From NCBI GenBank assembly GCA_029866025.1, contig JARXAD010000006.1:18907-82906 (forward strand): a stretch of DNA of 64,000 nt, in the 5' to 3' direction. Positions 2,534 to 20,067 of the stretch are shown in pieces. The notes under the pieces are model-generated. The model was not told the DNA's origin. It saw only the letters and a program-made list of their open reading frames with translations, and did not search any database. Source of the stretch: Vampirovibrionales bacterium. Its GTDB lineage: Bacteria; Cyanobacteriota; Vampirovibrionia; Vampirovibrionales; Vampirovibrionaceae. Every line of letters starts with the position of its first letter. Position 1 is the stretch's first letter. The translations under genes and the position numbers were made by a program.

Positions 2534-5500
2534 TTAAGCGCTTTGCAGCGATCGGGCTTGCAAGCCATGGCCACTTTCTTGCGTCGATTGCAACGACGCA
2601 ATGGCTTCCACCAAGGCCTTGGCCCCTTGCAAGGTGGTCATCATGGGCACATGGCGCAACACCGCCGCCTTGCGGATGTAGCTGTCATCCACGTGGGCCG
2701 CTTCGCCCATGGGGGTGTTAATCACAAGTTGAATGGTGCCCGCCAGAATTTCTTCTTCAATGGTGTGGCCGCCTTCGTGCTTTTTCTGGGTTAGGGTAAC
2801 GCTTAAGCCATGCTGCTGCAAATACGCTGCCGTACCGGCGGTGGCTACCAATTCAAAACCAAGACTGGTTAAGGCTTGGGCCAGCGGCAAGGTGTCCGCT
2901 TTATCGGTGTCGTTTACGCTTACAAACACCCTGCCTTGGGTTGGAATGGTCATTCCAGCGCCCATCATGGCTTTGGCATAGGCCAGCGGGAAAGTGGTGT
3001 CCAGCCCCATCACCTCACCCGTACTCCGCATTTCTGGCCCCAATACCGGGTCCACGCCTCTAAATTTAATAAAGGGAAACACCGGTGCCTTTACCGCCAC
3101 CCACTGGGGCGGCGTGTTGGTGGGCAAAATAGTAGCCAACGGCGTGCCCAGCATCACCTGCACCGCCATATGAATGAGCGGGTAACCCGTGGCTTTGCAC
3201 ACAAAAGGAACCGTTCGGCTGGCGCGTGGATTCACTTCCAGAACGTACAAGGTGCCTTGGTGAATGGCAAACTGGATGTTAATAAAACCTTTCACCTGCA
3301 AGGCCTTGGCCAGCTCATGGGTGGCGGCTTCAATTTGTTGAACCATAGCGGCATCAATGGTTTGGGCGGGGTACACACACACGCTATCGCCACTGTGAAT
3401 GCCGGCGTGCTCCACGTGCTCTAAAATCGCGCCCACAAAGGTGGTGGTGCCATCACTGACGGCATCCACGTCCAGCTCCAAGGCGCCTTCCAAAAATCGG
3501 TCAATCAGCACGGGCTTATCGGGCTCTACTTCTGCAGCGGTGGCTAAGTACTGGCTCAGGCTGGCATCACTGTACACCACACGCATGCCACGCCCACCCA
3601 ACACATAACTGGGGCGCACCATCAACGGATACCCAATACGAGCGGCAATCTCCAGGGCTTCGGCTTCGCTGATGGCTATGCCACTTTCGGGGCAACGTAG
3701 ACCAAGGGCAGCCAGCTCGGGTCGGGCCATAATATCGGCAAACTGCTCACGATCTTCTGCCCAATCCATGCTTTCCGGCGAGGTGCCAATAAAGGGAACG
3801 TCGTCATAGCGAAGGGCTTGAGCCAGCTTGAGAGGCGTTTGGCCGCCCAGTTGAGCAATGACACCCAAGGGTTGCTCTTGGGCCACCAAATTGGCGGTGT
3901 CTTCGGGGGTCATGGGGTCAAAATACAGACGATGACTTATATCGTAGTCCGTAGAGACTGTCTCGGGATTGGAGTTCATCATAATAGGCTCGTAGCCTAA
4001 TTTTTCCAGCGAAAGCGCCGCGTGGACGCAGCAGTAGTCAAATTCAATGCCCTGACCAATGCGGTTGGGTCCACCCCCCAAAATAATCACCCGCTTGTTG
4101 GGTTGAGACACATCCGCTGTGGGAGCTTCGTTTTCAGTGCCGTCATACGAGCTATAAAAGTACGGGGTGTGGGCTTCAAATTCGGCAGCACAGGTATCCA
4201 CCGCTTTGTAAACGGGGTTAATGCCTCGTTTTAAGCGTTCACCACGAACGGTCGATTCATTAATTCCAACAATAGCAGCCATCTGAGCGTCGCCAAAGCC
4301 TTGGGTTTTGGCGGTTTTAAAGAGTTCGTTAGAAATATCAGCAAGGGTTTTACAGGTAGCAAGCTGTTTTTCCGTGGCGATAATACCGGCGTACTGGTGT
4401 AAAAACCATGGATCCAACCCAGAAATGGTGGAAATTTCCGTTAAATCAAAGCCTTGATGGAGGGCTTGATACACCCAGTGCAGACGGTTTTCTGTGGGAG
4501 AAACAAGGTAATCTCGCAGTTCGGTATCACTAACCGATTGCTTTTTAAAATAGAAGCCGCTAAGGCCAACTTCCAAGCCCCGCAAGGCTTTTTGAAAGGA
4601 TTCTTGAAAGCTCAGGCCAATGGCCATCACTTCCCCCACGCTTTTCATTTGAGGCGACAAGGTGGCATCCGCACCGGGAAATTTTTCAAAAGCAAAACGC
4701 GGAATTTTGGTCACCACGTAATCCAGCGCCGGTTCAAAACAGGCGGGGGTGGTGCGGGTAATGTCGTTGGTTAACTCATCCAGCGTGTAGCCCACCGCCA
4801 GTTTAGCGGCTATTTTGGCAATGGGCACCCCCGTGGCCTTGCTTACCAACGCACTGCTGCGCGACACGCGCGGGTTCATCTCAATAACAATTACCCTGCC
4901 CGTTTGGGGATGAATGGCAAATTGAATGTTGCAGCCACCCGCTTCTACGCCTACGGCGCGAATAACAGCAATGCTGGCGTCGCGCAAATGGTGGTATTCT
5001 CGGTCGCTTAGGGTCATGGCGGGGGCCACCGTCATGCTATCGCCCGTGTGAATGCCCATGGGGTCTATATTTTCCACGCTGCTCACAATCACCACATTAT
5101 CCGCAGCGTCGCGCATCACTTCGTATTCGTATTCTTTCCAGCCCAGCGCGCTTTCTTCCAATAGCACCTGATTAATGGGCGATTGCTCGAGCCCGTGTTT
5201 CAGGCTGTCTTCAAAGTCGCTTTGATTGTAGACAATACCGCCGCCACTGCCGCCCATGGTAAAGGCAGGCCGTAAAATAATGGGAAACCCCAACCGCCCA
5301 GCAATGGCCCAACCTTCTTCCACAGTGGTAGCGGTTTCGGAATGCAAGGATTCGAGGCCGCATTGTTCCACCACCACCTTAAAGGCGTCGCGGTCTTCGG
5401 CGGTGTGGATGGCGTTAAAGTTGGCGCCAATGAGTTGCACGTTAAATTCGGCCAGCACACCGTTTTGGTGCAAGGTGTGGGCGATGTTGAGGGCGGTTTG

Positions 5501-5776
5501 GCCGCCCATGGTGGGCAATAAGGCATCAGGTCGGTCTTGGGCGATGATGCGGGTCACCATCTCTGGCGTGATGGGCTCGATGTAGGTTTTGGTAGCGAGG
5601 TTGGGATCCGTCATGATGGTGGCAGGGTTGGAATTGATGAGGATGACCTCATACCCTTCCGCCAACAAGGCTCGGCACGCCTGAGAGCCACTGTAGTCAA
5701 ACTCGCACGCTTGGCCAATGACAATGGGCCCAGCACCAATGACGAGAATACGGCGAATATCGGTGCGTTTGGGCAT
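2534..5776 (-). CDS. carB: Carbamoyl-phosphate synthase large subunit
   Basis: 1080 aa; N-terminus [30 protein letters not shown] and duplicated ATP-grasp halves plus MGS-like C-terminal domain are textbook CarB. Confidence 0.97.
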
Positions 5777-6063
5777 GGCAAGGCTTCCTAGCAGCAGTTA
5801 AACAGCTTTAGTCTGCGGTAAACAAAGCGTTTCGTCTATCTGTTTACGGTGTTAAATTACAGTACGGAAAAACGACAGCACCAAACCGTTAAGCCTACCT
5901 TTGTGGGTGTGGCTAAAGCAACAGGAACCGAGCCGGCGACCAAGGTGTTCACTTGAAAATGAAAGGGCGTGGTTGCTTTTGTGTAGGCAATTACCTCACC
6001 TGTTTGGATTTAAATAAGTAAGACACCTCTTTAAGCTGTGGAGATTGGCATGAACATAACAAC

Positions 6064-6123
6064 TACCTACCTACCTACCTACCTACCTACCTACCTACCT
6101 ACCTACCTACCTACCTACCTACC
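6064..6123 (+). repeat. Perfect tetranucleotide simple-sequence repeat (TACC)x15
   Basis: Directly visible: 15 uninterrupted TACC units; lies between GGAG-N6-ATG (6040-6052) and the methyltransferase ORF. Confidence 0.97.
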
Positions 6124-6162
6124 ACAGAGCCTAAGCCTTTAACACGCTTTGGGGCGGGTCAT

Positions 6163-7029
6163 TTGAACAAAAAGTTTCCAAGCTTTTCTCTAGCAGAGCT
6201 AAAAGCAGGGGTGGCTAAGGGAACGTTTACAACCACGACCCTAAAAAACACCCCAAGCCAAACCATCGACATTTACGCTCCCACGCCTGCTTATTTTAAT
6301 CAATCCCACGTGGCAGATAAACCCCTCAACCAATTTGACGTGTGGTACGTGGAAAGCCACAACAGCGGCACGCCTGTTACCAAAGAAGCCCATAACTACG
6401 ACGAGTTATACCGCTACGATGGCCAAATTTACGAATTTTTGGTGCACAACGTTTTAAACTATAACGGCCACAAGGTGCTGGCCCAAACAGCCATGGATTT
6501 AGCTGAGAAACAGGGTTTAAACAAAGCCGATACCGTGATTGTGGACATGGGCGCCGGCCATGGTCCGATGCTGCAAGTGTTGAGAGAAAAAGGTTTTAAA
6601 GGTAACTTGATTGGTTTAGAAATTAGCGAGGCTGCAAAAAAAGCCCACGACACGTCTCATTCTTACCCCTATTTAAAATACCGTTATGATGACTACTGGC
6701 TAGGCCGGCTATCCAGCCAACCCCATTTGCTTCAACAATTAAAACAAAAATCCCCCGCTATTTTTGTGGCTGCCAGTATCTCTCCCCTTAACGAAGCCAT
6801 GGACGATATTCATGAAGCCTTAAAAATAATGAAACCAAAGTGCTACTTCATTATAAATATGGCATTCAACGAAAGCTCCGACAAAATGTACGCCTATATT
6901 AGCAATCTCGAACAGCAAGGGTATTTATCGATAGAGAAAAAACAGAATTACCAGCATCGCAGCCACCTGAATGGTGCCCCCTTATTTTTTGATTGTTTTA
7001 CCTACAAAATTCTCAAACCCATTACATAA
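6163..7029 (+). CDS. Class I SAM-dependent methyltransferase (substrate unknown); candidate phase-variable gene, alternative start ATG 6050 depending on repeat number
   Basis: Motif I VIVDMGAGHGPML followed by acidic residue in LIGLEIS; frame 1 is open from TAA 6019-6021 through the whole repeat but has only TTG 6163 as start; AT-richer than neighbours. Confidence 0.7.
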   Translation: MNKKFPSFSLAELKAGVAKGTFTTTTLKNTPSQTIDIYAPTPAYFNQSHVADKPLNQFDVWYVESHNSGTPVTKEAHNYDELYRYDGQIYEFLVHNVLNYNGHKVLAQTAMDLAEKQGLNKADTVIVDMGAGHGPMLQVLREKGFKGNLIGLEISEAAKKAHDTSHSYPYLKYRYDDYWLGRLSSQPHLLQQLKQKSPAIFVAASISPLNEAMDDIHEALKIMKPKCYFIINMAFNESSDKMYAYISNLEQQGYLSIEKKQNYQHRSHLNGAPLFFDCFTYKILKPIT

Positions 7030-7269
7030 AACCTTTAGGGGGTTAAGCCCCAGCGGTAGCGAGCCCCCTGAGTTCCATAAGTCCAAGGGATCGTCCCTAG
7101 CGCAAATACTTGCCCCCGTACCGGTTTGGAAAACGAGACCAGACCAAGTATGAGTAATAGTTTTAGTACCGTTACAAAACGCATCAACGTAGCCCCCTTT
7201 TTTCTAAAGCTATTTTTTACTTTAAATAATAAACAGGTGCCATCCTATCCAAAAAACAACCCAAGCTTC

Positions 7270-8196
7270 TTATTTTACCCACGCTTGCGCAGCAGGAAGA
7301 GCAGGCGGCTTAATAACCACCTGAGTGGCGACCTTCAACCAGCGCAAGCAGCAAATAATGGCGTACGTTACGTCCAGCTCAAACCACTGCAGCCCCATGC
7401 GCGCCAACCGCGGGTAGGCATGATGGTTGTTGTGCCAGCCTTCGCCCCAGGTGAGCAGCGCCACAAACCAATTGTTCCGGCTTGAATCCGGCGTGTTGTA
7501 CGAACGATACCCCCACAGATGCGCGGCAGAATTAACCAACCACGTGGCGTTAAGGCCATAGATAATGCGCAATAGCCCACCCCACACCAGAATAGACAGA
7601 CCCATTTTAAGACCGCCAAACCCGCAGCCCACCCCAAACAGCAGCGCTAAAAATAAGACGTTAATGGCGGTGTAATGAGTCTCTAAAAACTGAAGCGCCG
7701 GATCGTCATAGAGATCGGGAGCCAGGCGGCGAACTTGCTCGGGGGATTCATCCAATTGGGGGTGGGTAAAAAACGCCCACAAAAAATGAGACCACAACAC
7801 ACTGTAGCGCGGTGAGTGGGGGTCTCCGTCCTTATCCACGTGGCTGTGATGGAGACGATGGCAAGCAGACCACCAGATGGGACCGCGTTGAAAGGCTAAA
7901 CACCCCAATAAGGCTAAAAACAGCTTAAGAGGCCGCGCCAACACATAGCTTCGATGGGCTAAGAGTCGGTGGTAGCAGAGGGTTATACCCAAACAAATGG
8001 TGGCAAAAGAAAGCACTCCAAAGGTGATAAGCCCCGCTAAGCTATACGTAAAAGGCGCGGCCACAATGGCCATGTACAAGGCTATGTATACCGAGATGAG
8101 AGGGACATTTAAGCGTTCTGCAGTGGCATAGCTGGGGATGTGGTGGTTGGCCGCCAATGCCAGCAGTGGTGTATTCACCCAGTGGGGAGCGCTCAT
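7270..8196 (-). CDS. Membrane fatty-acid (acyl-lipid/acyl-CoA) desaturase
   Basis: Histidine boxes HRLLAHRS, HRLHHSHVD and HNNHHAYP plus hydrophobic membrane segments. Confidence 0.85.
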   Translation of the reverse strand: MSAPHWVNTPLLALAANHHIPSYATAERLNVPLISVYIALYMAIVAAPFTYSLAGLITFGVLSFATICLGITLCYHRLLAHRSYVLARPLKLFLALLGCLAFQRGPIWWSACHRLHHSHVDKDGDPHSPRYSVLWSHFLWAFFTHPQLDESPEQVRRLAPDLYDDPALQFLETHYTAINVLFLALLFGVGCGFGGLKMGLSILVWGGLLRIIYGLNATWLVNSAAHLWGYRSYNTPDSSRNNWFVALLTWGEGWHNNHHAYPRLARMGLQWFELDVTYAIICCLRWLKVATQVVIKPPALPAAQAWVK

Positions 8197-8481: not shown

Positions 8482-11400
8482 CTAAAGAGTCACAACCAAC
8501 TGGTGCGATTGCCCATCGTTTTGCAAGGTAATTTGGGCGCCGCATTCGTTTACCAAAGCATCGATGCCATTGAAAGTAGCCGACGATACACCACCACACA
8601 CCCCCAACGGGTTGAGAACCGTGATGTTGTAGCAGGTCTCACCACGCGTAAACACCATAGAATACTCGGGCCAATGAGAAGGAATACAGGGATTAATAAA
8701 TAGTTGATCACCTACCACACGCAAGCCTAAAATGGATTCGGTGCCGGCTCTGTACAGCCACCCCGCAGCGCCTGTGTACCACGTCCAACCGCCACGCCCC
8801 ACATGAGGCGCTACCGAATACACATCCGCCGCCATGACATAGGGCTCTACTTTATACCGGTGCACTTGAGACCGCGTACTACTGTGACTGATAGGGTTGA
8901 GCAATGAAAATAATGCCATGGCTTTTTCACCCTGGCCCAGCTTGGCAAAGGCCATCACACTCCAGGTAGCCGCATGGCTGTATTGGCCACCGTTCTCACG
9001 AATACCGGGTGGGTATCCCTTAATGTAACCAGGTTCTTTGTGAGTTGTATCAAAGGCGGGTGTAAACAGTAATGCCAGTTGGTCTTTGCTATTAATCAGC
9101 TGCTTGTCCACTTGCGCCATCGCCCGCTGGCTGCGCTCGCTATCCCCGGCACCAGACAGTACACTCCACGATTGTGCAATGGAATCGATTCGACACTCAT
9201 CACTACTGTGACTGCCCAAGGGGGTGCCGTCATCGTAATAACCACGCCGGTACCACTCGCCATCCCAGGCATTCGCTTCCAACGAGGCCGCTAACTGAAG
9301 GCCATGGGCTTTCCAAATAGCAGCACGCTTTTTCTCCTGACGCTCCAAGGCAATGGGAATAAACGCTTTGAGTGTTGCAACTAAAAACCAACCCAACCAA
9401 ACGCTCTCGCCTTCGCCACCTTCGCCCACGCGATTCATGCCATCGTTCCAATCGCCTGTGCCCATCAAGGGCAATCCATGGCACCCCACGCGCAAACTCA
9501 GGTCTAACCCACGCGCGCAGTGCTCAAACAGGGTAGCCGATTGCTCTGATTGAGTGGGATGATAAAAAGCATCATGCTCGCCTGGCTCTAAGCCACGCCC
9601 CTCTAAAAAAGAAATGGGTTCATCCAAAATAGCGGCATCGCCCGTAGCGGCAACATAATGAGCAGCGGCATACGCCAGCCAAATGCGATCATCGGAAATG
9701 TGGGTACGAACCCCCTGACCCTGGTTGGGCAACCACCAATGTTGCACATCGCCTTCCACAAACTGACGACCGGCGGCACGAAGCAAATGTTCTCGAGTCA
9801 GTTCGGGGCGAGACAAGGTAAGGGCCATACCATCTTGAAGTTGATCACGAAAGCCATAAGCCCCACTGGCCTGATAAAATGCCGAACGCGCCCACACACG
9901 GCACGCCAAACTTTGGTACAACAACCAGCCATTCAGCATGATGTTCATGGCCGCATCCGGTGTGGTTACTTGCACAGCCCCCAAGGTGGAGCGCCAATGG
10001 ACTTTTACGTCGTCCAAAAGGGTCGCTGTATTTTCCTTACGATACCGTTGAATAAGGGCTTGAGCCTCGGAAACCGAAGGAGTTTGTCCCAAGGTCATCA
10101 CAATCTCAATGCTTTCGTTGGGTTGCAACTCCATAAAGGTTTGCAACACACCACAGGGATCCAAGCCCGCCCCTACGCGTTTGGAAAGAATGACTTTGTC
10201 ACCCAAGCCCGCAGGTATTGTGACGCTGCCATTACGGCCAATAAATTCACGACGATCGCCCGTCCACGCATGCTGTTTTCCACCCAAGTCCATAAAGGTA
10301 CAGCGGTTGCCAAACTCTCTGCTCCAAGGGTTGTGTGCCAACAGCGCACCCGTTTCATTATCTAAAGTAGTTACGATATACGGTGCTGATTGGCTGCGCG
10401 ACTGCCCCAACACCCACTCGGCGTAAGCCGTTACGGATAAACGTCGTGTACGCCCCGACGTGTTTTTTAAGGTTAACCGAGAAATTTTAATAGGGTCATG
10501 AAGAGAAACCGTTTGCAGAAGCTGAGAATCAATGCCGTGGGCCGCCGTCTCAAACTGGCTGTAACCAAACCCATGACGAGCAACATACTGCCCTGTGGCG
10601 ATTCGAATGGGAGAAGCCGTAGGGCTCCAAATTTTACCGGAGTCTTCATCTTTAATGTAAAAGGCTTCACCAGTGCGGTCACTAACGGGATCATTGGACC
10701 ATGGTGTCAGCTGATTTTCTCGGCTATTACAAGCCCAAGTGTACCCACTGCCTTCCACAGCCACCTGAAAACCAAAGTTCGGGTTGGCGATGACATTAAT
10801 CCATGGCGCCGGCGTTTGCTGCCCTGGCCCTAGCACCGTAATGTACTCTGTGCCGTCGATAGAAAAACCACCCAATCCGTTAAAAAAATGTAAGTTCTTA
10901 ACCCACTCAGGAGGAGGTAAGGGGGCGACAAGGGAATCGTTTAACAAATCACCCAGGGATAAAGAAGCTTTTCGTGGCAAGAATGGCAACACTTCTTGGG
11001 AGCGTTTTAGCTGTTTGGAAAGGCTACCCCGGCGTCCGTTCAATACAATTCGGGCCACAGCGGGGAGCACGGCAGCAACGTCTGGAGCAATTAAATCAGA
11101 GCGCAAAAGAAATACCGCACGAGGAGCACCATCCTCGTTTCGATTCGGGTGGTTATGACAGCTACGCACTAAGGTTTCCAAGGCAATTTGTAAATCTTGC
11201 ACATAGGAGGCCGATCGTTCATTCAGAACCACCACATCAAAAGCCAACTGTTTAATGGCCAAATACTCATGAGCTCGAAGGACCTGCCGGACTAATCCAA
11301 TGTCCTCAATGGAATCAATACGCACCAACACAATGGATGCATCTCCCGAGATACCTTGGCTCCACAACGCCGATTGGTTGGCTTGGCTCCGTTGCAATAC

Positions 11401-14400
11401 GTATGAAGACGGCCTTAGCAATGGGTTGGTGTACAGAATGTTGCTTCCCAAGCGTTGAAAAAGACTGGCTTCATCTGCTTCAATCCCCAAATGGCGCAAT
11501 TGCACTTGCGCCTGCGTCCACGCCAAGGTGGTAGTACGCACAAAGGCGTGAGCATCCTGATGTTTTTCCACCAGCGCCAACACGTCCGCCTGAGTGCTAG
11601 CAACCAGGGTCCAATAGGCTATTTTAACGGTGGCTCCTGGAGGAAGGGAAATGGATCGACGCAAAGCAAAAATTGGATCAAGTACTGTCCCCACTGTGTT
11701 AGAAAGCGACCGGCCCTGTTGCATGGCCAGCGGAAAACGTGCATCACCGCCACGGCCTACAAAGCGGGCTCGATCGGTTTCTACTTCAAGTTCGCCAACG
11801 GTAGACCCTTCTACCACACTCAAATGGGCCGCCCAAATTTCAGGCTCATTAGGCGCGCGGCGACGACGGGTGGCCAACAACACCCCTTGTTTGGGTAAAT
11901 AACGGGTTTGGACAAACAACTTGGAAAATGCAGGATGCGAGGTATCGGACGATTGGGACGCTAACACCAGTTCCGAATAGGAGGTAATATCCAGTTCGCG
12001 CGTTCGAACGCCCCGGTTGGTAATGGAGATTCGCCGCACTTCGGCATCGTCTTCAGAAGAGACCATGACCTCTAGGCTGGTTACCAGCGAACCATCTCTC
12101 CGCATAAACTCTGCTCGGTCTTCAGTAAAGATGGCTTCATACTGCTTGGGCTCTTTTGCGGTGGGTTGGTACCCCGCAGACCAAACCTTGCCACTTTGTT
12201 TGTCTCGCAAATAAACATAAGCCCCCCAGTTGTCCTGGGTTACATCGCTATGCCAGCGGGTAATATTAAGTGTCTGACCTTGGCATTGCCATTGGCTATA
12301 ACCGGACCCCGCACTGGTAATCATCACCTGGTAACGACCATTGGAAAGCACATGGGCTTCGGGCGTTGCCGAATGAGGACTGGTAATATGCCGACGACTA
12401 ACCGTGGTTAACTCCTGCACGGTGGCCACTTCTTCGGCCCTAGGGTAGGCCACCGCCACATCTTTGGGCATGCGTTCTTGCAATAAAAATTCAGCGGCCT
12501 GTATACACGGCTCGGCATGGAAACGTTGCCGGAATCGACCGTTTTGCAACACATTGGCAATGGAAAGAATACTCATGCCTTGATGGTGGGCCATATAGGC
12601 GTGAACCAAAACAACGGATTGACCTTCCGGCACCCGTGCCTTGGTAAAATCTAGGGCTTCGCAAAAGCCAAAACGCCCTAATGCTTGCAGCGCTTCCAAT
12701 GCATTAAAGTTGGTTAAAGCAGCAGTAGGGTTAATCATACTAGCCAAGGCGGTTGCATACGGTGCAATCACACGATTGTCTCCCAAGCCCCGCTTTAAGC
12801 CCAAACCCGGTACCCCAAAATTAGAATATTGATACGTTAATTCACGATCACGAATATGATACGCCGATTCAGACACCCCCCACGGCAAGCCCAGTTGCTG
12901 GCCATATGCAATTTGTCGATCCACAATCAGCCGATTGGTTTGCTCCAACAAACTACCCAAAGGTGCATGCATCACCAAAGCCGGCATTAAGTATTCAAAC
13001 ATAGAACCTGACCAGGAAATAAGAGCCGCCCCACCGTTTAACGGAGTAACGGCACGGCCCAAGCGAAACCAATGTTTGGCCGGAATATCGCCTTTTGCAA
13101 TGGCATAAAAACTGGCCAAGCGGGCCTCGGATGCCAGCAAGTCATAACAGCTTTCATCCAATCGGTCCTCTTGCACGTTGTACCCAATGGCCAACAATTT
13201 TCGGGCAGGATTGAGCAAAAAGCCAAATTCCATCGCATTGGCCATGGTTCTCGCCGTGTTTTCGACAACCTTTAACCGCTGCTTAAACGCAACCTTTCCA
13301 TTCACATTCAACGTCAAATCGCTTTGATGACTGTGAATGGTCGCTAACGTGGCTTCCGCCCACCACAGCAACTCGTCACTGGCATCCCCCATTACGGTAT
13401 GGGCCAAGGTCGTTGCCACATCCACCAAAGTGGACGCATGGCGATGCAGCGTATTCAAATACGCCACCCTGTTTGGAGCAACCTTTAGCGCTGGAAGTCT
13501 CAAGTCATCGGCAATAACATCCAGCGTTTGGGCTAACTCTGTATGCAAATAATCGTGTTTTTTACGATGGGTAGGTAGTGCCTCAAACGACTGCTGTGTG
13601 AGTGTCACCGCATCCTGAATACCGGCCACCATGTCCGCATGGGTCAGCACCCCTTCTAAAAGAAGAGGACTGTCTTGCGCCCACTCTTGGCACACATTGG
13701 CCAATGTAATTAAATGGCCTGCCAAATTCCCACTATCAACCGCGCTAATATATTGAGGATAAAGAGGGCGACCATCCTGCGTGTCATACCAGTTAAAAAA
13801 GTGGCCCCTAAATTGAGCCAAGCGATTCATGCTGGTTAACGTATTTTCCAAGCGTTCCAACGTCTCTAATTGGCCTGCCCAGCCCAAATCGCAAGCCGAA
13901 ACAGCCGATAGCAAATACAGCCCCATATTGGTGGGAGATGTGCGGTGGGCAATAACAGGCAACGGGTTTTCTTGAAAATTATCCGGTGGCAGCCAGTTTT
14001 CTGATTCCGTAACGAAGGTTTCAAAAAATCGCCACGTTTTTCGTGCAATATGGCGAAGGGTTTGGGCATCACTACCACTAAGGGGTACGGTGTTAGAACC
14101 CACAGGGGATGTGCTAACCCAACGGGCAATCGCTGGGGAAAGAGACCACAGCAACACAAAAGGTAGAACTAAATTTTTATTGGCGTCAGGATTACTGATG
14201 GCAATGCCTAAAGCCGCCAAGGCAATAACAAGAGCGCCACCCATTTGATAGTAGTAACCCCACACTGTTAAATGGGTCCCATTTTTTGCTTGGGCAGCAG
14301 TCACCCATTCCAGCAGCTGTTTATGGCTAATGGTTAGACGGTATAAGGTTCGCCCAATGGCATCCAACATCATCCATGCTTGGTGGGCTAAAAATGCAAC

Positions 14401-17097
14401 AAGTAACGAGGTATGTAGTAACGACAGCCAAGCATCCGTAAGCAAGTGTCTAAAATGTGCTCTAAGGGATGTTTTTGGGCGCGATGGCCACAGGGCTGCG
14501 AGGAGTGGAAGAGCCGTGGGCAGCCCCATACCAATAATAATAAAACCTATCCAAATCAGCGCATCATTAAAGGGTAAGGTAAACGCTAACAGCAAAGCCG
14601 CCATGCTAGCCGGAGCCGATAAAGACCGTCGAAGGTTATCAAACACCTTCCACTGACCCATCAACGGAAGTGTATTACTAGACGGATTTTTTTGTTGACC
14701 GATCAACCACGGCAACAATTGCCAATCGCCCCGTGCCCAACGGTGCTGACGCGCGGAAGCAATATCATACCGAGACGGGAATTCTTCAATCACTTCAATA
14801 TCAGATACAAGGCCCGCACGGGCAAAAATGCCTTCGTACAAATCGTGACTTAGCATGGTGTTGTCTGGCGTGCGGCCACTAAGCGCCGCTTCAAAAGCAT
14901 CCACATCGTAAATGCCTTTACCGGCATAGGATCCTTCACCGTACAAATCTTGATACACATCAGACACTGCTGCCGAATAAGGCTCAATACCACCGGTACT
15001 AGAAAACACACATTGGAATAACGAGTTTTCACTTTGAGCCAACAGAGAAGGAGTAACCCGCGGCTGTAAAATGCCATACCCCTCAACCACCCGAACGGTT
15101 ACCCCATCCACTTGAGGGCGATTCAAAGGGTGAGCCATTTTACCCACCATCTGTCGCACCGTACCCAAGGGTAAGCGGGTGTCACTATCCAAAGTCACCA
15201 CGTATTGAACGCCATAAGGCACCCTGGGGGGCGTGCCATTGAACGCCATATAGCTGGTTTGGGTACTGCCACGCAGCAGTTGGTTTAATTCATGAAGCTT
15301 CCCTCGTTTGCGCTCCCAGCCCATCCACTGGCCTTGGGTTTCATTCCATAAGCGCTTGCGGTGTAGTACATAAAAACGCTGCGCAGGATGCTGTTCTGAA
15401 GACTCTTCGTGAACCGCAGCGCCGTAACGTGCATTAAGAACGGCAATGCCTTGAATGGCCGCCTGCAATAAAACGTCATCTCCCTCTGCGGTTTCCGTGT
15501 CGGAATCTTTCCAATCCGTTAGCAAGGCATAGTGGACATAGTTCTCTTTACTGGCGAGATGATGAATCTCTAAGCGTTCCAGCTGTTCAGACACATCGGT
15601 GGTGCTGGTAAGTAGTGTTGGGATCACCACCATGGTGCGGTATTGCAATGGAATGCCATTTTCCAATTCTAGACTGGGAAGCACGGTGGCATCAAAACCT
15701 TTGGTAATAGCACGATTAACCAACGCAATGGCCATATCCATAGCCGAAGAAGCCCCCAAAAGGGCCAAAAATCCTAATTTCAAAAATCCTAGTTTTAAGG
15801 CCGCCTCGCCCGTGGGGGCAGTGGCAAACACAGGCACCAAGAGCGCCAAGGCTGTCACCGCAGTCACATTGCCAATGTAGCCGCCAATGCCCAAATTAGA
15901 AAGAATTCGTGCAGGCCATTGCTTGACAGGAGCCCGATAACCCAAGTGGGCTTCAAAATCGCGTCGACCTTTAGCAATCAGGTAGTAGCCCGGGTCCTGC
16001 CTTAAATCGTCATCAGGATATTTTGACGCCTCCACCAGAGCGGCTTGAGTGACGGCCAACTCACTTTGTTTAGATCCCTTTGCAAGTTCCTCAATGGCCA
16101 TACGGTAGCCATTACGCGTCGGAAAATCCATGGCTGAAAAATTGCTATGGGCCGTCAATAAGGCATCCACAGGGCTCATTTGCTCAAACAGTTCGGTCCA
16201 ATCCACCTGAGAAATGAGCCGCATGCTCACAATGATGTTGCGGACCGTGACATTGGTAGCCCCTTGGCGCTGGTGTACCCAACGAACAGCAGCCTCTGCC
16301 GTGGTACCTTGCTTTTCCAGTTGATCATCAATCCAGGCCAAGATGGACGTTGCTTTGGGCTCCTGGTCTCGCATGCGCAGCATTAGCTGTACGGCAAAAG
16401 CATCAACCATGGGTTTTTTACTGCTACGATCCATCGCCTTTTGGGCAGCTTGTTCCATTTTAAGAGAATCGCTGAGGACCCAGTCGGCCAACATATCGGC
16501 TTTTTGGCTGGCTTCTCGCCCTGCCATGATGGATTCTGACGCGCGACGAAGGTTCTCTACCAGTAAAATTCGTAATGAAATGGAAACGGCCCAAAGTTCG
16601 CCCATGGTAAGGGGGTGAACCGTTTGATAGGCGGCCACAAAACGGCACAGCAATTCTGGACAGAATAAACTATCGGTATGGGCAATAAAGGCCCACGCAA
16701 TGCCCAGTACTCTGGGGTAACCGGCCAAATGGCCTTCCGTAAGCTTGGGTAATTGGCGATAATACCCCGCTGGCAAATCGTTTTGCACTTGGCGCAATTG
16801 CTCTTCCACCAAGTGGAAGTTATCCAGCAGCCATTCGGCAGCAGGGGTAATCAGGCGGTCTGACTGCACAGCCAACACAATGGCGTTGTAGGCCTTGCGA
16901 ACAACGGCTTCATTGTCATTCAGGCGATGAATGAGGGATTGCCCCCCACTCGGGGAAGTGGCGGTGGTGTGTTCCACAGCCAAGCAAACAGCATGCTGCT
17001 CTAAACTGTCAAGACCAAACAATTCATCCAGAATGAGATCTTGAGAGCTCCATGGAGAAACTGTTTTTTTAAAAAAGCTAAACAAGGCGGGTATCAA
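8482..17097 (-). CDS. ndvB: Cyclic beta-1,2-glucan synthase (NdvB/ChvB/Cgs family; membrane GT84 domain + GH94 glucan phosphorylase-like domain)
   Basis: 2871 aa, size and order of domains as in Cgs; conserved N-terminal AAEWLLDNFHLVEEQ segment, multi-TM glycosyltransferase core, C-terminal GH94-like region; TTG start overlapping upstream mini-ORF stop. Confidence 0.85.
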   Translation of the reverse strand: MIPALFSFFKKTVSPWSSQDLILDELFGLDSLEQHAVCLAVEHTTATSPSGGQSLIHRLNDNEAVVRKAYNAIVLAVQSDRLITPAAEWLLDNFHLVEEQLRQVQNDLPAGYYRQLPKLTEGHLAGYPRVLGIAWAFIAHTDSLFCPELLCRFVAAYQTVHPLTMGELWAVSISLRILLVENLRRASESIMAGREASQKADMLADWVLSDSLKMEQAAQKAMDRSSKKPMVDAFAVQLMLRMRDQEPKATSILAWIDDQLEKQGTTAEAAVRWVHQRQGATNVTVRNIIVSMRLISQVDWTELFEQMSPVDALLTAHSNFSAMDFPTRNGYRMAIEELAKGSKQSELAVTQAALVEASKYPDDDLRQDPGYYLIAKGRRDFEAHLGYRAPVKQWPARILSNLGIGGYIGNVTAVTALALLVPVFATAPTGEAALKLGFLKLGFLALLGASSAMDMAIALVNRAITKGFDATVLPSLELENGIPLQYRTMVVIPTLLTSTTDVSEQLERLEIHHLASKENYVHYALLTDWKDSDTETAEGDDVLLQAAIQGIAVLNARYGAAVHEESSEQHPAQRFYVLHRKRLWNETQGQWMGWERKRGKLHELNQLLRGSTQTSYMAFNGTPPRVPYGVQYVVTLDSDTRLPLGTVRQMVGKMAHPLNRPQVDGVTVRVVEGYGILQPRVTPSLLAQSENSLFQCVFSSTGGIEPYSAAVSDVYQDLYGEGSYAGKGIYDVDAFEAALSGRTPDNTMLSHDLYEGIFARAGLVSDIEVIEEFPSRYDIASARQHRWARGDWQLLPWLIGQQKNPSSNTLPLMGQWKVFDNLRRSLSAPASMAALLLAFTLPFNDALIWIGFIIIGMGLPTALPLLAALWPSRPKTSLRAHFRHLLTDAWLSLLHTSLLVAFLAHQAWMMLDAIGRTLYRLTISHKQLLEWVTAAQAKNGTHLTVWGYYYQMGGALVIALAALGIAISNPDANKNLVLPFVLLWSLSPAIARWVSTSPVGSNTVPLSGSDAQTLRHIARKTWRFFETFVTESENWLPPDNFQENPLPVIAHRTSPTNMGLYLLSAVSACDLGWAGQLETLERLENTLTSMNRLAQFRGHFFNWYDTQDGRPLYPQYISAVDSGNLAGHLITLANVCQEWAQDSPLLLEGVLTHADMVAGIQDAVTLTQQSFEALPTHRKKHDYLHTELAQTLDVIADDLRLPALKVAPNRVAYLNTLHRHASTLVDVATTLAHTVMGDASDELLWWAEATLATIHSHQSDLTLNVNGKVAFKQRLKVVENTARTMANAMEFGFLLNPARKLLAIGYNVQEDRLDESCYDLLASEARLASFYAIAKGDIPAKHWFRLGRAVTPLNGGAALISWSGSMFEYLMPALVMHAPLGSLLEQTNRLIVDRQIAYGQQLGLPWGVSESAYHIRDRELTYQYSNFGVPGLGLKRGLGDNRVIAPYATALASMINPTAALTNFNALEALQALGRFGFCEALDFTKARVPEGQSVVLVHAYMAHHQGMSILSIANVLQNGRFRQRFHAEPCIQAAEFLLQERMPKDVAVAYPRAEEVATVQELTTVSRRHITSPHSATPEAHVLSNGRYQVMITSAGSGYSQWQCQGQTLNITRWHSDVTQDNWGAYVYLRDKQSGKVWSAGYQPTAKEPKQYEAIFTEDRAEFMRRDGSLVTSLEVMVSSEDDAEVRRISITNRGVRTRELDITSYSELVLASQSSDTSHPAFSKLFVQTRYLPKQGVLLATRRRRAPNEPEIWAAHLSVVEGSTVGELEVETDRARFVGRGGDARFPLAMQQGRSLSNTVGTVLDPIFALRRSISLPPGATVKIAYWTLVASTQADVLALVEKHQDAHAFVRTTTLAWTQAQVQLRHLGIEADEASLFQRLGSNILYTNPLLRPSSYVLQRSQANQSALWSQGISGDASIVLVRIDSIEDIGLVRQVLRAHEYLAIKQLAFDVVVLNERSASYVQDLQIALETLVRSCHNHPNRNEDGAPRAVFLLRSDLIAPDVAAVLPAVARIVLNGRRGSLSKQLKRSQEVLPFLPRKASLSLGDLLNDSLVAPLPPPEWVKNLHFFNGLGGFSIDGTEYITVLGPGQQTPAPWINVIANPNFGFQVAVEGSGYTWACNSRENQLTPWSNDPVSDRTGEAFYIKDEDSGKIWSPTASPIRIATGQYVARHGFGYSQFETAAHGIDSQLLQTVSLHDPIKISRLTLKNTSGRTRRLSVTAYAEWVLGQSRSQSAPYIVTTLDNETGALLAHNPWSREFGNRCTFMDLGGKQHAWTGDRREFIGRNGSVTIPAGLGDKVILSKRVGAGLDPCGVLQTFMELQPNESIEIVMTLGQTPSVSEAQALIQRYRKENTATLLDDVKVHWRSTLGAVQVTTPDAAMNIMLNGWLLYQSLACRVWARSAFYQASGAYGFRDQLQDGMALTLSRPELTREHLLRAAGRQFVEGDVQHWWLPNQGQGVRTHISDDRIWLAYAAAHYVAATGDAAILDEPISFLEGRGLEPGEHDAFYHPTQSEQSATLFEHCARGLDLSLRVGCHGLPLMGTGDWNDGMNRVGEGGEGESVWLGWFLVATLKAFIPIALERQEKKRAAIWKAHGLQLAASLEANAWDGEWYRRGYYDDGTPLGSHSSDECRIDSIAQSWSVLSGAGDSERSQRAMAQVDKQLINSKDQLALLFTPAFDTTHKEPGYIKGYPPGIRENGGQYSHAATWSVMAFAKLGQGEKAMALFSLLNPISHSSTRSQVHRYKVEPYVMAADVYSVAPHVGRGGWTWYTGAAGWLYRAGTESILGLRVVGDQLFINPCIPSHWPEYSMVFTRGETCYNITVLNPLGVCGGVSSATFNGIDALVNECGAQITLQNDGQSHQLVVTL

Positions 17098-17204
17098 AGG
17101 GTACTTTTGGCTTCTTTTTTTAAGTTTTTGGCTGCTTTTTTTTCTTTTTGGGTCTTGGCAGGCTTTTTCTTAACATCTTTGACGGTTACTTTTTCTTTTC
17201 CCAT
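17094..17204 (-). CDS. 36-aa Lys-rich mini-ORF (MGKEKVTVKDVKKKPAKTQKEKKAAKNLKKEAKSTL) translationally coupled to ndvB
   Basis: ATG 17202-17204 preceded by AAGGAG at 8-nt spacing; stop TGA overlaps the ndvB TTG (TTTGA); contains A8 and A7 tracts. Confidence 0.4.
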   Translation of the reverse strand: MGKEKVTVKDVKKKPAKTQKEKKAAKNLKKEAKSTL

Positions 17205-17676
17205 GAGTCGGGCTCCTTGTATGAGGACGGCGTCCGTAGATGGCACCCGTGTGACAGGAGCTTACCACACGGCTAACCAAATAGCCGATTGGAGTACGTC
17301 TCAATCCAGGTACCAACTGCTAACGATAACAGCACAAAAGAACCGTGTTCCCTTCAAAGCTAATTACCTGACCGGCCTCTTAGAGAGAATATTTTTATTT
17401 AATATACTTAATGACAGTAGGAATCGATATAATTAGTTCGTTATCGTCTTTATCAAAGAGATTGCACGTAGCAATAACAGTAAAGGTGAGAGCATAACCT
17501 TGAACAGTCCCAAAAAAATGATCATAATTTGTTTGCTTCATTTTTGTAGAATGAAAGCCAATCAACCCATAATATCGGACAGCCTTATAGGCGGTGGCTA
17601 ACAATTCCTAACCCTATCAACTACTTGTTGAAGGTACTCAGAGTGGAGACATTGGCTCTTGAAATTAGAACAAAAC

Positions 17677-17707
17677 ATGGTGGCGCCTCCAGGAATTGAA
17701 CCAGGGA
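17677..17707 (-). repeat. 31-bp exact copy of the 3' end (T-loop to CCA plus 1 nt) of tRNA-Phe; attL-like direct repeat
   Basis: atggtggcgcctccaggaattgaaccaggga identical to 31922-31952; similarity decays over the next ~15 nt. Confidence 0.85.
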
Positions 17708-17854
17708 GAGGAATATTTTTAAGTATATAATGAAGTATACTCTCACTGTCTATTTTTCTAAAAATAGAAGCCATTGAAAGACTTTTGGCTATTGGGCATA
17801 ATGGGCCTTAATTCTCAATGATTCCTTAGTTTACTGGCTTATTCTGTGCACGAC

Positions 17855-17873
17855 TACACAAGAATTACACAAC
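17855..17873. repeat. 19-bp motif tacacaagaattacacaac (tandem ACACAA/AATTACACAA iterons), copy 1, ~150 bp inside left repeat
   Basis: Exact match to 31856-31874. Confidence 0.7.
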
Positions 17874-18075
17874 GTTTTCACCGGAAATGCCATAGGCCCC
17901 CTGGAAATTAGTTCGGATGGCACTTCTTTCTTACGCTTAATTAGTGCCAGTTGTAACAAATTATAAACAAAAGAGTGGTACCCCCTCAGGTTTTGTCAAG
18001 TTAGTCGAAATAAAGTGGTAAGACCATAAAGCCAATAAGAGTAAAAAAGTAGTATTAGCCAAATCGCAACAATCA

Positions 18076-20067
18076 TTGGGTGTTGTTATGTCGTTTCCAT
18101 TACTGCTGTCGTTGTGTCGTTATTACCGGTGGCCCGTGGCCTTAGTGGTCTCTGTAACAGTGTGGACCGCCGGACTGCTAACGGCTGTGCAAGCCCCTAT
18201 TGTTTGGGCACCCAGCGATGTAACAACAGCCTTGGGAGGCATTTTAACCGGTTTGGCGTGGAGTAGTGCTGGGTTATGGCTGTATTTTTTAAAAGATCAA
18301 CCTACGTTTTATGCCCAGCGCACCTTAATACAGGCAGCGGCCATTGCCGTTTTGCTAACCCAGGGGGTGTGGCTTCAGGCGTCGTGGTTATCAGTGGCGA
18401 CAGGTTATTTAACCATTAAGGTTTTAATCGGCCTGTCATATCCCAAAAAACTAGAGCCTGTTTCAGGCGTAGCTCTGGGCGGATTGAGTCAATGGCCTCA
18501 TCGTGTGGGGCCTGCGATTACAAGAGGTGTGCTGATTTTAAGTGTGGCGTGGTTATTGTTCCTCACCTTTTTTCCTTCGTGGGCACTGGGGCTATTGATA
18601 CCAGCGCCCGCCGTTATTAGTGTGTATGGTTTGGCGTTAATGGGATACGCCTTTGCCACCTTTCGGTTGTTTTGTGGACCCATCGCGCCCCCCTCGGTGG
18701 GCCTTACTGGCTGGGGATTGGTTACCGGCTTGGATGTGCTGCTATATGCCGCTGCCTTGCTGGCCACTCTCCAGCCTTTTTCTCTTACCTCGGCAGGGGT
18801 TTCCTCTGCCGTTATCAACACGATGCTGCTCGTTATTCTTAGCCATAGCGTGGCCTTAAGCTGTGTAGAGCAATGGAAGCGATGTCTTGGCAGTGTGCAT
18901 ATTAAGCGGCATCACCACACCGCGCACCAACAGCTGCATGTGGATTTGGCCGTCAAAACCATCCAATTAGAACAGGAAGTAGCCACCCGCCGCAAAGCCC
19001 AAGAAGAGCTACACAAAATTAACCAAGATTTAGAGCAACAAGTGCAACTGCGCACTGCCGATATGGAAATGATTTTACAAGAATTGGGGCAGGTGAATGC
19101 CCAAATGGAAAGCGAACTGAACGAACGTAAGGTGCTGGAATCACAGTTGGTGCAAGCACAAAAAATGGAATCGGTTGGGCAATTGGCTGCTGGGGTGGCC
19201 CACGAAATTAACAACCCTGTTGGGTTTATTCTAAGCAATTTACGCACCTTGGATGAATACGTGCAGTTACTGCAACAACTGCTCAACCATTACGAAGACT
19301 TGGAAACCTCTTTGATGCAAGCCCCCTTAGGTGAATTAGGAGACAACGAAGACTTGGTTCGACCCATCTTAAACAACTTAGCCACCTTTCGAAAAAACGA
19401 AGATATTGGTTTTATTTTGCAAGATTTAACGGGCTTGCTAGCAGAGTCCATTGACGGCTCCAATCGGGTGAAAGAAATTGTGCAAGGCTTAAAAAGCTTT
19501 AGCCGCATTGATGAAAGCACATTGCAGCAAGTGGACTTACACGAGTGTATAGAATCCACTTTAAAGGTGGTTTGGAACGAAGTGAAGTACAAGTGTAACG
19601 TTATCAAACACTACGACGCCCAATTACCGCCCCTACTATGCTACCCCGGCCAACTTAATCAGGTGTTTTTAAACTTGCTGGTCAACGCCGCCCAAGCCAT
19701 TGAACAACGGGGCGATATTACCATTGCCACCCGAACCGAAACCTTCAATGATACTCCTCACATTGTGATTGAGATTACCGACACGGGGGCCGGGATACCG
19801 GCCAAATTACTCACCAAAATTTTTGATCCCTTTTTTACCACCAAGCCAGTTGGCAGTGGTTCGGGGCTGGGATTGGCCATTTCCTACGGCATTGTTCACA
19901 AACACCAAGGCACGTTATCCGTTCAATCCACCGTAGGCAAAGGGACGGTCTTTACCATCGCCCTACCCATCAACGCCCTCACTCCCACCCACGTGTCCGA
20001 ACCGCCGTTGACTACCTCTGGAGTACCCAGCTATGAACGCCAGCTTCTCAGCCCGGTTGCAGCCTAA
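18076..20067 (+). CDS. Sensor histidine kinase with N-terminal multi-TM membrane sensor domain
   Basis: ~8 predicted TM helices, coiled coil, HisKA box AAGVAHEINNP, HATPase_c motifs DTGAGIP and GSGLGLAIS. Confidence 0.85.
   Translation: MGVVMSFPLLLSLCRYYRWPVALVVSVTVWTAGLLTAVQAPIVWAPSDVTTALGGILTGLAWSSAGLWLYFLKDQPTFYAQRTLIQAAAIAVLLTQGVWLQASWLSVATGYLTIKVLIGLSYPKKLEPVSGVALGGLSQWPHRVGPAITRGVLILSVAWLLFLTFFPSWALGLLIPAPAVISVYGLALMGYAFATFRLFCGPIAPPSVGLTGWGLVTGLDVLLYAAALLATLQPFSLTSAGVSSAVINTMLLVILSHSVALSCVEQWKRCLGSVHIKRHHHTAHQQLHVDLAVKTIQLEQEVATRRKAQEELHKINQDLEQQVQLRTADMEMILQELGQVNAQMESELNERKVLESQLVQAQKMESVGQLAAGVAHEINNPVGFILSNLRTLDEYVQLLQQLLNHYEDLETSLMQAPLGELGDNEDLVRPILNNLATFRKNEDIGFILQDLTGLLAESIDGSNRVKEIVQGLKSFSRIDESTLQQVDLHECIESTLKVVWNEVKYKCNVIKHYDAQLPPLLCYPGQLNQVFLNLLVNAAQAIEQRGDITIATRTETFNDTPHIVIEITDTGAGIPAKLLTKIFDPFFTTKPVGSGSGLGLAISYGIVHKHQGTLSVQSTVGKGTVFTIALPINALTPTHVSEPPLTTSGVPSYERQLLSPVAA

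Follow-up and report, generated by a model that had tools for sequence, protein, structure and literature searches.

A (TACC)15 array between an upstream ATG and a class I methyltransferase frame: a candidate translational switch in an uncultured Vampirovibrionales genome

The repeat and its reading frames

The locus described here lies in a 64 kb window (the whole stretch of DNA that was analysed, 64,000 nucleotides) from a metagenome-assembled genome (MAG) of a Vampirovibrionales bacterium. Its central feature is a perfect run of fifteen TACC units, 60 nt in all, which is preceded by an ATG with a Shine-Dalgarno-like motif and followed by the ORF of a class I SAM-dependent methyltransferase (Table 1). 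TRF called the array at 6063–6123, with a period of 4, 15.2 copies and 100% matches. A search with a 12-nt TACC pattern, allowing at most one mismatch, returned 13 matches in the window versus 0.16 expected, and all 13 fell within the array. No other simple repeat longer than 12 nt was found in the 64 kb. On the plus strand the array encodes Thr-Tyr-Leu-Pro in all three frames without stops, whereas its antisense (GGTA) carries TAG in every frame; the repeat is used here in its stop-free orientation.

In the 15-unit allele, the frame of ATG 6050 encodes MNITT(TYLP)5QSLSL and closes at TAA 6140–6142. The methyltransferase frame, bounded upstream by TAA 6019–6021, stays open across the array as far as 7029. 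TTG 6163 is the first ATG, GTG or TTG in it, with no start codon between 6022 and 6163. The third frame has its own stop shortly beyond the repeat (Table 1). When alleles of other lengths were built in silico, 16 units gave a protein of 327 aa and 13 units one of 323 aa, both uninterrupted fusions from ATG 6050 that start MNITT(TYLP)n TEPKPLTRFGAGHLNKKFPSF and continue into the enzyme. On all of these points the original prediction was borne out. Sequence and TRF agree on the perfect array, translation agrees on the reading of ATG 6050 through the repeat to its TAA, three-frame translations agree on the stop-free Thr-Tyr-Leu-Pro, the ORF map and translation agree on the open methyltransferase frame with TTG 6163 as its first start, and the in silico alleles show the predicted fusion at 16 or 13 units.

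Table 1. Features of the repeat-methyltransferase locus, numbered by position in the window
Feature	Coordinates	Strand	Basis
Intergenic region separating carB (minus strand) from the divergent proposed switch	5777..6049		ORF map
Shine-Dalgarno-like GGAG	6040..6043	+	Sequence; 6 nt before ATG 6050
ATG, proposed true initiation codon of the methyltransferase	6050..6052	+	Sequence, translation
30-codon ORF of the assembled 15-unit state, proposed to be OFF	6050..6142	+	Translation
(TACC)15 array, putative slippage-prone element	6064..6123	+	Sequence, TRF
TAA closing the second proposed OFF frame (units = 2 mod 3, e.g. 14 or 17)	6132..6134	+	Translation
13 methyltransferase-frame codons TEPKPLTRFGAGH between the repeat and TTG 6163	6124..6162	+	Profile, alignment, AlphaFold2
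Class I SAM-dependent methyltransferase ORF, 288 aa from TTG	6163..7029	+	Deposited model

The genes that flank this arrangement are carB and a fatty-acid desaturase. Since carB (2534–5776; 1573 bits to the NCBIfam model of the carbamoyl-phosphate synthase large subunit) is transcribed from the minus strand and diverges from the methyltransferase, the earlier suggestion that the methyltransferase sits directly upstream of carB, where carA would be expected, had to be dropped. A GH94 glucan enzyme is located 1.4 kb off on the opposite strand, with the desaturase in between. The promoters of both divergent units presumably lie within the intergenic region between them; a search for a sigma-70-like consensus promoter across 5600–7400 returned none, and there was no Rfam match in 5500–7600. 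The methyltransferase gene was also said to be AT-richer than its neighbours, and the difference is real but modest, with a GC fraction of 0.43–0.47 versus 0.52–0.56 for carB.

The initiation codon of the enzyme

Both deposited models of the protein begin 3′ of the array. The first, MDH4379377.1 ([quoted passage not shown]), has 288 aa and starts at TTG, while the second has 272 aa and starts at GTG 6211. These models favour an alternative in which synthesis of the methyltransferase begins at TTG 6163 (or GTG 6211) and the repeat belongs to a 5′ leader or upstream ORF, where it would either tune expression or be inert. Tuning could conceivably proceed through termination of the upstream ORF and re-initiation 20 nt before TTG, or through mRNA structure or processing. 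The position of TAA 6140–6142, 20 nt ahead of TTG 6163, is compatible with re-initiation, and simple repeats in 5′ UTRs of H. influenzae are documented to act via mRNA processing (PMC12721329).

The signals for translation point the other way. Neither TTG 6163 nor GTG 6211 is preceded by a Shine-Dalgarno-like motif, whereas ATG 6050 has GGAG with a 6-nt spacer, and a survey of starts among the genes of the window showed TTG to be a minority start codon. The original prediction had called this ribosome-binding site strong; the motif and its spacing stand, but its strength is ordinary, since a Shine-Dalgarno-like motif of 4 nt or more is found close to a candidate start in about 14 of the window's 34 long genes. 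The sole stop-free orientation of the repeat likewise argues against this alternative, and a role for the array as the spacer of a −35/−10 promoter was considered and rejected, 60 nt being too long.

Additional evidence comes from homologues. An exhaustive HMMER scan over 1.84 billion cluster representatives returned four close relatives, which share 45% (P0003), 37% (P0004), 33% (P0005) and 28% (P0006) identity with the protein. In these alignments, residues 8 and 11 of the TTG-start query pair with P0004 residue 22 and P0005 residue 27, respectively, and P0004, P0005 and P0006 all possess 14–16 N-terminal residues beyond what a TTG start would give. Their N-termini read MAAVLNFSHSYFSS, MLANVSPVRFGS and MQYLNATFFSG, and in a homologue that is split (locus L169) the upstream ORF starts MYKPITNVPLFFSS. 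The corresponding order in the window is MNITT, the repeat, TEPKPLTRFGAGH and then TTG directly.

A profile built from the four close homologues alone was used as a test of the N-terminus. It aligned with the TTG-start protein from profile position 22 at 265.7 bits, and scored 259.7 bits with the GTG-start protein. When the 13 upstream codons were added, the alignment reached back to the R of RFGAG (profile position 9) and the score rose to 268.8 bits, an increase of 3.1 bits relative to the TTG start and of 9.1 bits relative to the GTG start. The 3.1-bit gain is small and comes from four homologues, but it is in the right direction. The codons for RFGAG can be translated only by way of the repeat, because the frame contains no start codon upstream of TTG 6163 after its last stop. 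When the sequences are aligned globally, so that their ends have to pair, MNITT falls opposite the homologue N-termini M..N[VFA][ST]; this is weak support, since the local profile alignment stops short of MNITT.

In related genomes, the homologues lack any tetranucleotide repeat and start in the ordinary way, as with the AGGAGG-N6-ATG of P0004. Therefore, the array and about seven linker codons would represent a lineage-specific insertion near the N-terminus, at a tolerant position. In the AlphaFold2 model, the 13 residues ahead of TTG form a tail with pLDDT under 50, which is predicted to be disordered and would tolerate a repeat peptide, while the TTG-start protein formed a complete and confident fold (pLDDT 93, pTM 0.91). 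Given a fold that is complete without the predicted tail, a TTG-initiated enzyme could be functional as well. The structural prediction for the upstream residues is thus best taken as neutral toward a start at ATG 6050, even if the complete fold and the disordered tail both fit initiation at TTG. Considering the Shine-Dalgarno-like motif and the homologue N-termini together, we infer that ATG 6050 is probably the real start codon, and initiation downstream of the array appears unlikely. The proposed wiring of ATG, repeat and methyltransferase also held up, in that the frames fit and the homologue N-termini align upstream of TTG 6163.

The methyltransferase and its relatives

The protein is a class I SAM-dependent methyltransferase with a confident structure model. 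It has the seven-stranded beta-sheet Rossmann fold of this class, with an acidic residue where strand 2 ends and the GxGxG motif; its SAM-binding motif I reads VDMGAGHG and is intact. The Pfam match was to Methyltransf_23, barely above the cut-off (E 1.7e-6), and no NCBIfam family scored above its cut-off. A search with the family profile, of the kind that had been suggested for predicting the substrate class, placed the protein closest among solved structures to human METTL27/WBSCR27 (7qcb; E 2.3e-11 over about 170 residues). The two proteins have in common the seven-beta-strand Rossmann fold with GxGxG, but their identity is low, and the N-terminus of the protein described here bears an additional beta/alpha domain, about 100 residues long, that only the four close relatives share. 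METTL27 itself has no known substrate (PMC9240639) from which a function could be carried over, and the search identifies the protein as a METTL27-like class I methyltransferase.

The original prediction had also offered two roles for the enzyme, one as a regulator of the phasevarion type and the other as a modifier of a surface glycan. Neither found support. The sequence has no PP dipeptide and hence no (D/N/S)PP(Y/F) motif, it matched no DNA-methyltransferase family in Pfam or NCBIfam, and it contains no target-recognition domain. There are no Res/HsdR or other restriction-modification genes beside it, the adjoining genes being carB and the desaturase, and the PADLOC matches were weak, partial and confined to the SAM-binding motif. 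A phasevarion was therefore rejected, the defining features of a DNA methyltransferase being absent. Similarly, no sugar-methyltransferase family in Pfam or NCBIfam matched the protein, and its gene is not located in a glycan cluster. The top structural neighbours were methyltransferases of small molecules, lipids, proteins or RNA, and a small molecule, a lipid or a protein is a more likely substrate than DNA.

The gene is rare. A word-indexed search of 5.8 billion proteins returned only the gene itself, and among 15 billion proteins it was found on a single contig (147,680 bp), while an exact-sequence look-up gave no contig. Searches of JGI metagenomes found neither a related locus nor a match to the exact 28-nt pattern of flank plus repeat. 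Beyond the four close relatives, the HMMER scan returned about 50 remote class I methyltransferases at 22–30% identity. Two of the close relatives, P0004 and P0006, came from the same sample, and P0006 adjoins secE-nusG-L11-L1, where the best named matches of L1 were to Vampirovibrio, Vampirovibrionales and Melainabacteria at 59–68% identity. In so far as these searches show, close relatives are confined to a Vampirovibrionales-like lineage. No conserved gene neighbourhood was found among the homologues.

Such a tiny and patchy family, with four close relatives among all of the representatives scanned, might also be expected of a dispensable gene that is being lost. By this account, a possibly horizontally acquired gene of low GC content would have been inactivated by neutral expansion of a microsatellite, with no selection for switching. 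The AT-richness of the gene relative to its neighbours, the frameshift that splits its closest relative, the out-of-frame state of the assembled allele and the lack of other simple-repeat loci nearby are all in keeping with gene loss. Against it stand the 288-codon body, which is intact, as is its SAM-binding motif, and whose fold is modelled with high confidence, and the retention of the start codon, the Shine-Dalgarno-like motif and the open linker codons. Moreover, decaying repeats gather interruptions, whereas this array is uninterrupted and any inactivation by it would be readily reversible. Taken together, these features make gene loss an improbable explanation of the locus.

A proposed contingency switch and its parallels

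The reading we prefer, to which we would give a probability of roughly 0.65, is that of a slipped-strand translational ON/OFF contingency switch acting on the methyltransferase and assembled in its OFF state. The repeat is perfect, its unit is not a multiple of three and its length is in the hypermutable range, and it lies inside the reading frame of ATG 6050, 14 nt downstream. Translation from this ATG, directed by the GGAG 6 nt upstream, would run straight into the array, where each 4-nt unit gained or lost would move the reading frame by one. With a unit number of 1 mod 3 (13, 16, 19 and so on), ATG 6050 would be in frame with the 288-codon body and the enzyme would be ON, as a product of the form MNITT-(TYLP)n-TEPKPLTRFGAGH-enzyme that carries the repeat peptide in its putatively disordered N-terminal tail. 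In either of the remaining phases, translation would halt 3 or 6 codons past the array, at TAA 6132 or TAA 6140, and the assembled 15-unit genome would accordingly be OFF. Such a switch presupposes that the array slips at a useful rate in its Vampirovibrionales host and that turning the enzyme on and off affects fitness, and both are presumed here.

OFF is the only state observed, in the consensus sequence of one MAG, and the unit count of such a consensus could be off by one. If the number of units were an artefact of assembly or consensus, the true allele might be in frame (16 or 13 units) and normally expressed, with a repetitive N-terminal tail. Assemblers can indeed miscount low-complexity arrays, and a mixed population in a MAG can be collapsed to one allele. 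However, a 60-nt array together with both flanks fits within a typical short read, which makes a gross miscount unlikely, and we consider this explanation very improbable. In any event, a perfect tetranucleotide tract of 13–16 units would still be hypermutable (PMC2651432), and a miscount would alter the current state and not the mechanism.

The mechanism proposed for this locus is that of a classical tetranucleotide contingency locus, which is textbook; what is unusual is the lineage. Well-known examples from H. influenzae include lic1A, lic2A and lic3A with CAAT, lgtC with GACA and mod with AGTC. Like the array described here, these loci carry a perfect 4-nt repeat of hypermutable length within an ORF, a few codons past the ATG, so that the gene is ON in one phase of three and, in the remaining two, is OFF because translation ends shortly past the tract. 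The unit here is TACC, though, and the host is an uncultured Vampirovibrionales (Melainabacteria) MAG and not a pathogen of the Pasteurellaceae. In addition, an H. influenzae genome has about a dozen or more such loci compared with one in the 64 kb here, and because this window contains no second simple-repeat locus there is no sign of a multi-locus phasome. The switch proposed here is, moreover, known from one assembled sequence alone, in contrast to the H. influenzae loci.

In H. influenzae, tetranucleotide tracts mutate by unit gain or loss at a rate of about 1e-4 per generation, and strain F3043 has a (CAAT)21 tract in the 5′ end of an ORF for a putative SAM-dependent methyltransferase (PMC2651432). 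The F3043 tract is the nearest parallel to the present one and resembles it also in being placed on a SAM methyltransferase that does not act on DNA. The phasevarions of Haemophilus, Neisseria and Moraxella (type III Mod and type I Hsd) likewise have a simple repeat in the 5′ coding region of a methyltransferase, but the enzyme described here is not a DNA methyltransferase, and it is without their target-recognition domain and Res/HsdR neighbour. It also differs from glycan loci of the lic1/lgtC type in falling outside the sugar-modifying families and glycan clusters.

Vampirovibrionales are non-photosynthetic, predatory or epibiotic relatives of cyanobacteria, and to our knowledge phase variation has never been described in this lineage or lifestyle. 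In the literature searched, TACC was not tied to tetranucleotide phase variation, and neither Melainabacteria nor Vampirovibrio was tied to phase variation by simple repeats. It is conceivable, though tentative, that Vampirovibrionales use slipped-strand contingency loci, one of which switches a lineage-restricted METTL27-like methyltransferase, as a form of bet-hedging in which self-modification relevant to interactions with prey or phage is varied. If this were true, tetranucleotide switching would extend to a predatory, uncultured lineage and an orphan methyltransferase would be marked as a trait under fluctuating selection. It would also offer a way into the function of the METTL27-like family, of which even the human member has no known substrate. 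The value of the locus would then lie in distribution and ecology and not in a new mechanism. Phase variation by simple repeats has mostly been reported from host-adapted pathogens and commensals, possibly reflecting database bias, and a review has noted that mapping such loci over wider phylogenies would inform why they evolve (PMC11868660).

A scan for (TACC)6 in one genome per species gave at least 119 loci from many phyla, and it shows how often such an array is wired in this manner. The Vampirovibrionales genome described here was not among the matches listed. Of those matches, 103 arrays had enough flanking sequence to be evaluated, and in four of these an ORF of 200 codons or more emerges from the repeat and an ATG within 30 nt upstream is open to it. 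Merely possessing a TACC array therefore does not bring this wiring with it. The four arrays lie at the 5′ gene ends of a T9SS-sorted M4 protease in Flavobacteriaceae (L130), a SulP transporter in Methylomarinum (L155), a LysM protein in Chloroflexota (L128) and a C25-propeptide protein in Coatesbacteria (L101). They have the same TACC unit and wiring as the present locus, with the ATG 5–25 nt upstream, but they contain 6–9 units and their products are secreted or membrane proteins; none is on a methyltransferase or occurs in Melainabacteria. Surface or secreted products are typical cargo of contingency loci.

The TACC switch architecture is thus specific and is also present in other uncultured bacteria. 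If the proposed switch is real, then together with the arrays of Flavobacteriaceae, Chloroflexota, Coatesbacteria and Methylomarinum it would suggest that switches of this tetranucleotide kind are widespread in environmental bacteria that have not been cultured. A separate (TACC)6 scan of viral contigs gave 48 loci, which were uninformative for the methyltransferase locus. Two arrays of the Melainabacteria type were among the matches listed in the scan of genomes, one of them at a contig end in UBA5018 (L057) and the other an intergenic array of 18 units in Obscuribacterales (L127).

TACC arrays at the starts of long ORFs

Among the matches listed, four loci in other bacteria (L130, L155, L128, and L101) carry 6–9 TACC units that begin 5–25 nt past an ATG and run into long ORFs (table). 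These arrays are candidate contingency loci of environmental bacteria. An array of 18 units also occurs at L127, in a Candidatus Obscuribacterales (Melainabacteria) MAG; since no long ORF was found leaving it, this array appears to be intergenic.

Coordinates of TACC arrays, homologues, and window features
Feature	Location	Strand	Host	Product or content	Frame
L130 array	4454-4485		Flavobacteriaceae	M4 protease with T9SS sorting domain	out
L155 array		minus	Methylomarinum	SulP transporter	in
L128 array		minus	Chloroflexota	914-aa LysM protein	out
L101 array		minus	Coatesbacteria	C25-propeptide protein	out
L127 array	5468-5539	minus
L109 array	5462-5493
L160 array	3888-3927
L102 array	2093-2264
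P0003	L169 528-1447
P0004 neighbourhood	L168 2546-3877
Tandem repeat	window 17105-17151			21 nt, 2.3 copies, T7/T8 runs
Intergenic region	window 17100-18300
2871-aa gene	window 8482-17097	minus		GH94/glucoamylase domains
2620-aa ORF	window 38094-45956	minus

Genomes with several arrays

The Verrucomicrobia MAG SRR11784281_bin.6 possesses at least three TACC arrays (in L069, L109, and L160), and because two of them immediately adjoin the starts of paralogous genes of ~250 aa, a small multi-locus phasome is suggested. The gene at the L109 array has a signal-peptide-like start. Numerous long arrays also occur in the Metamycoplasmataceae MAG CBDHHR01 (L102, L071, L103, L122, and L137 among the matches listed), where they reach 43 units in those matches and some lie within long open frames; instead of acting as switches, the arrays may simply belong to coding sequence that is repetitive.

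Methyltransferase homologues and other window features

The closest homologue of the window's methyltransferase, P0003 (45% identity), is broken by a 1-nt frameshift close to a short T-run (about 680–700 of its locus), leaving its N-terminal piece as a separate 64-aa ORF that starts MYKPITNVPLFFSS. Possible explanations of the split are an error in sequencing, decay to a pseudogene, or switching at a homopolymer. A second homologue, P0004, lies directly 3′ of a GNAT acetyltransferase and of a 443-aa protein with protein arginine methyltransferase (PRMT)-type domains (PRMT5, PRMT_C), a eukaryote-like enzyme that is unusual for a Vampirovibrionales-like genome.

Within the window itself, the 21-nt tandem repeat lies in an intergenic region of low GC content (0.38–0.42), upstream of the 2871-aa gene, whose product would be cyclic beta-1,2-glucan synthase-like judging by its domain content. 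The window also encodes a 2620-aa ORF.
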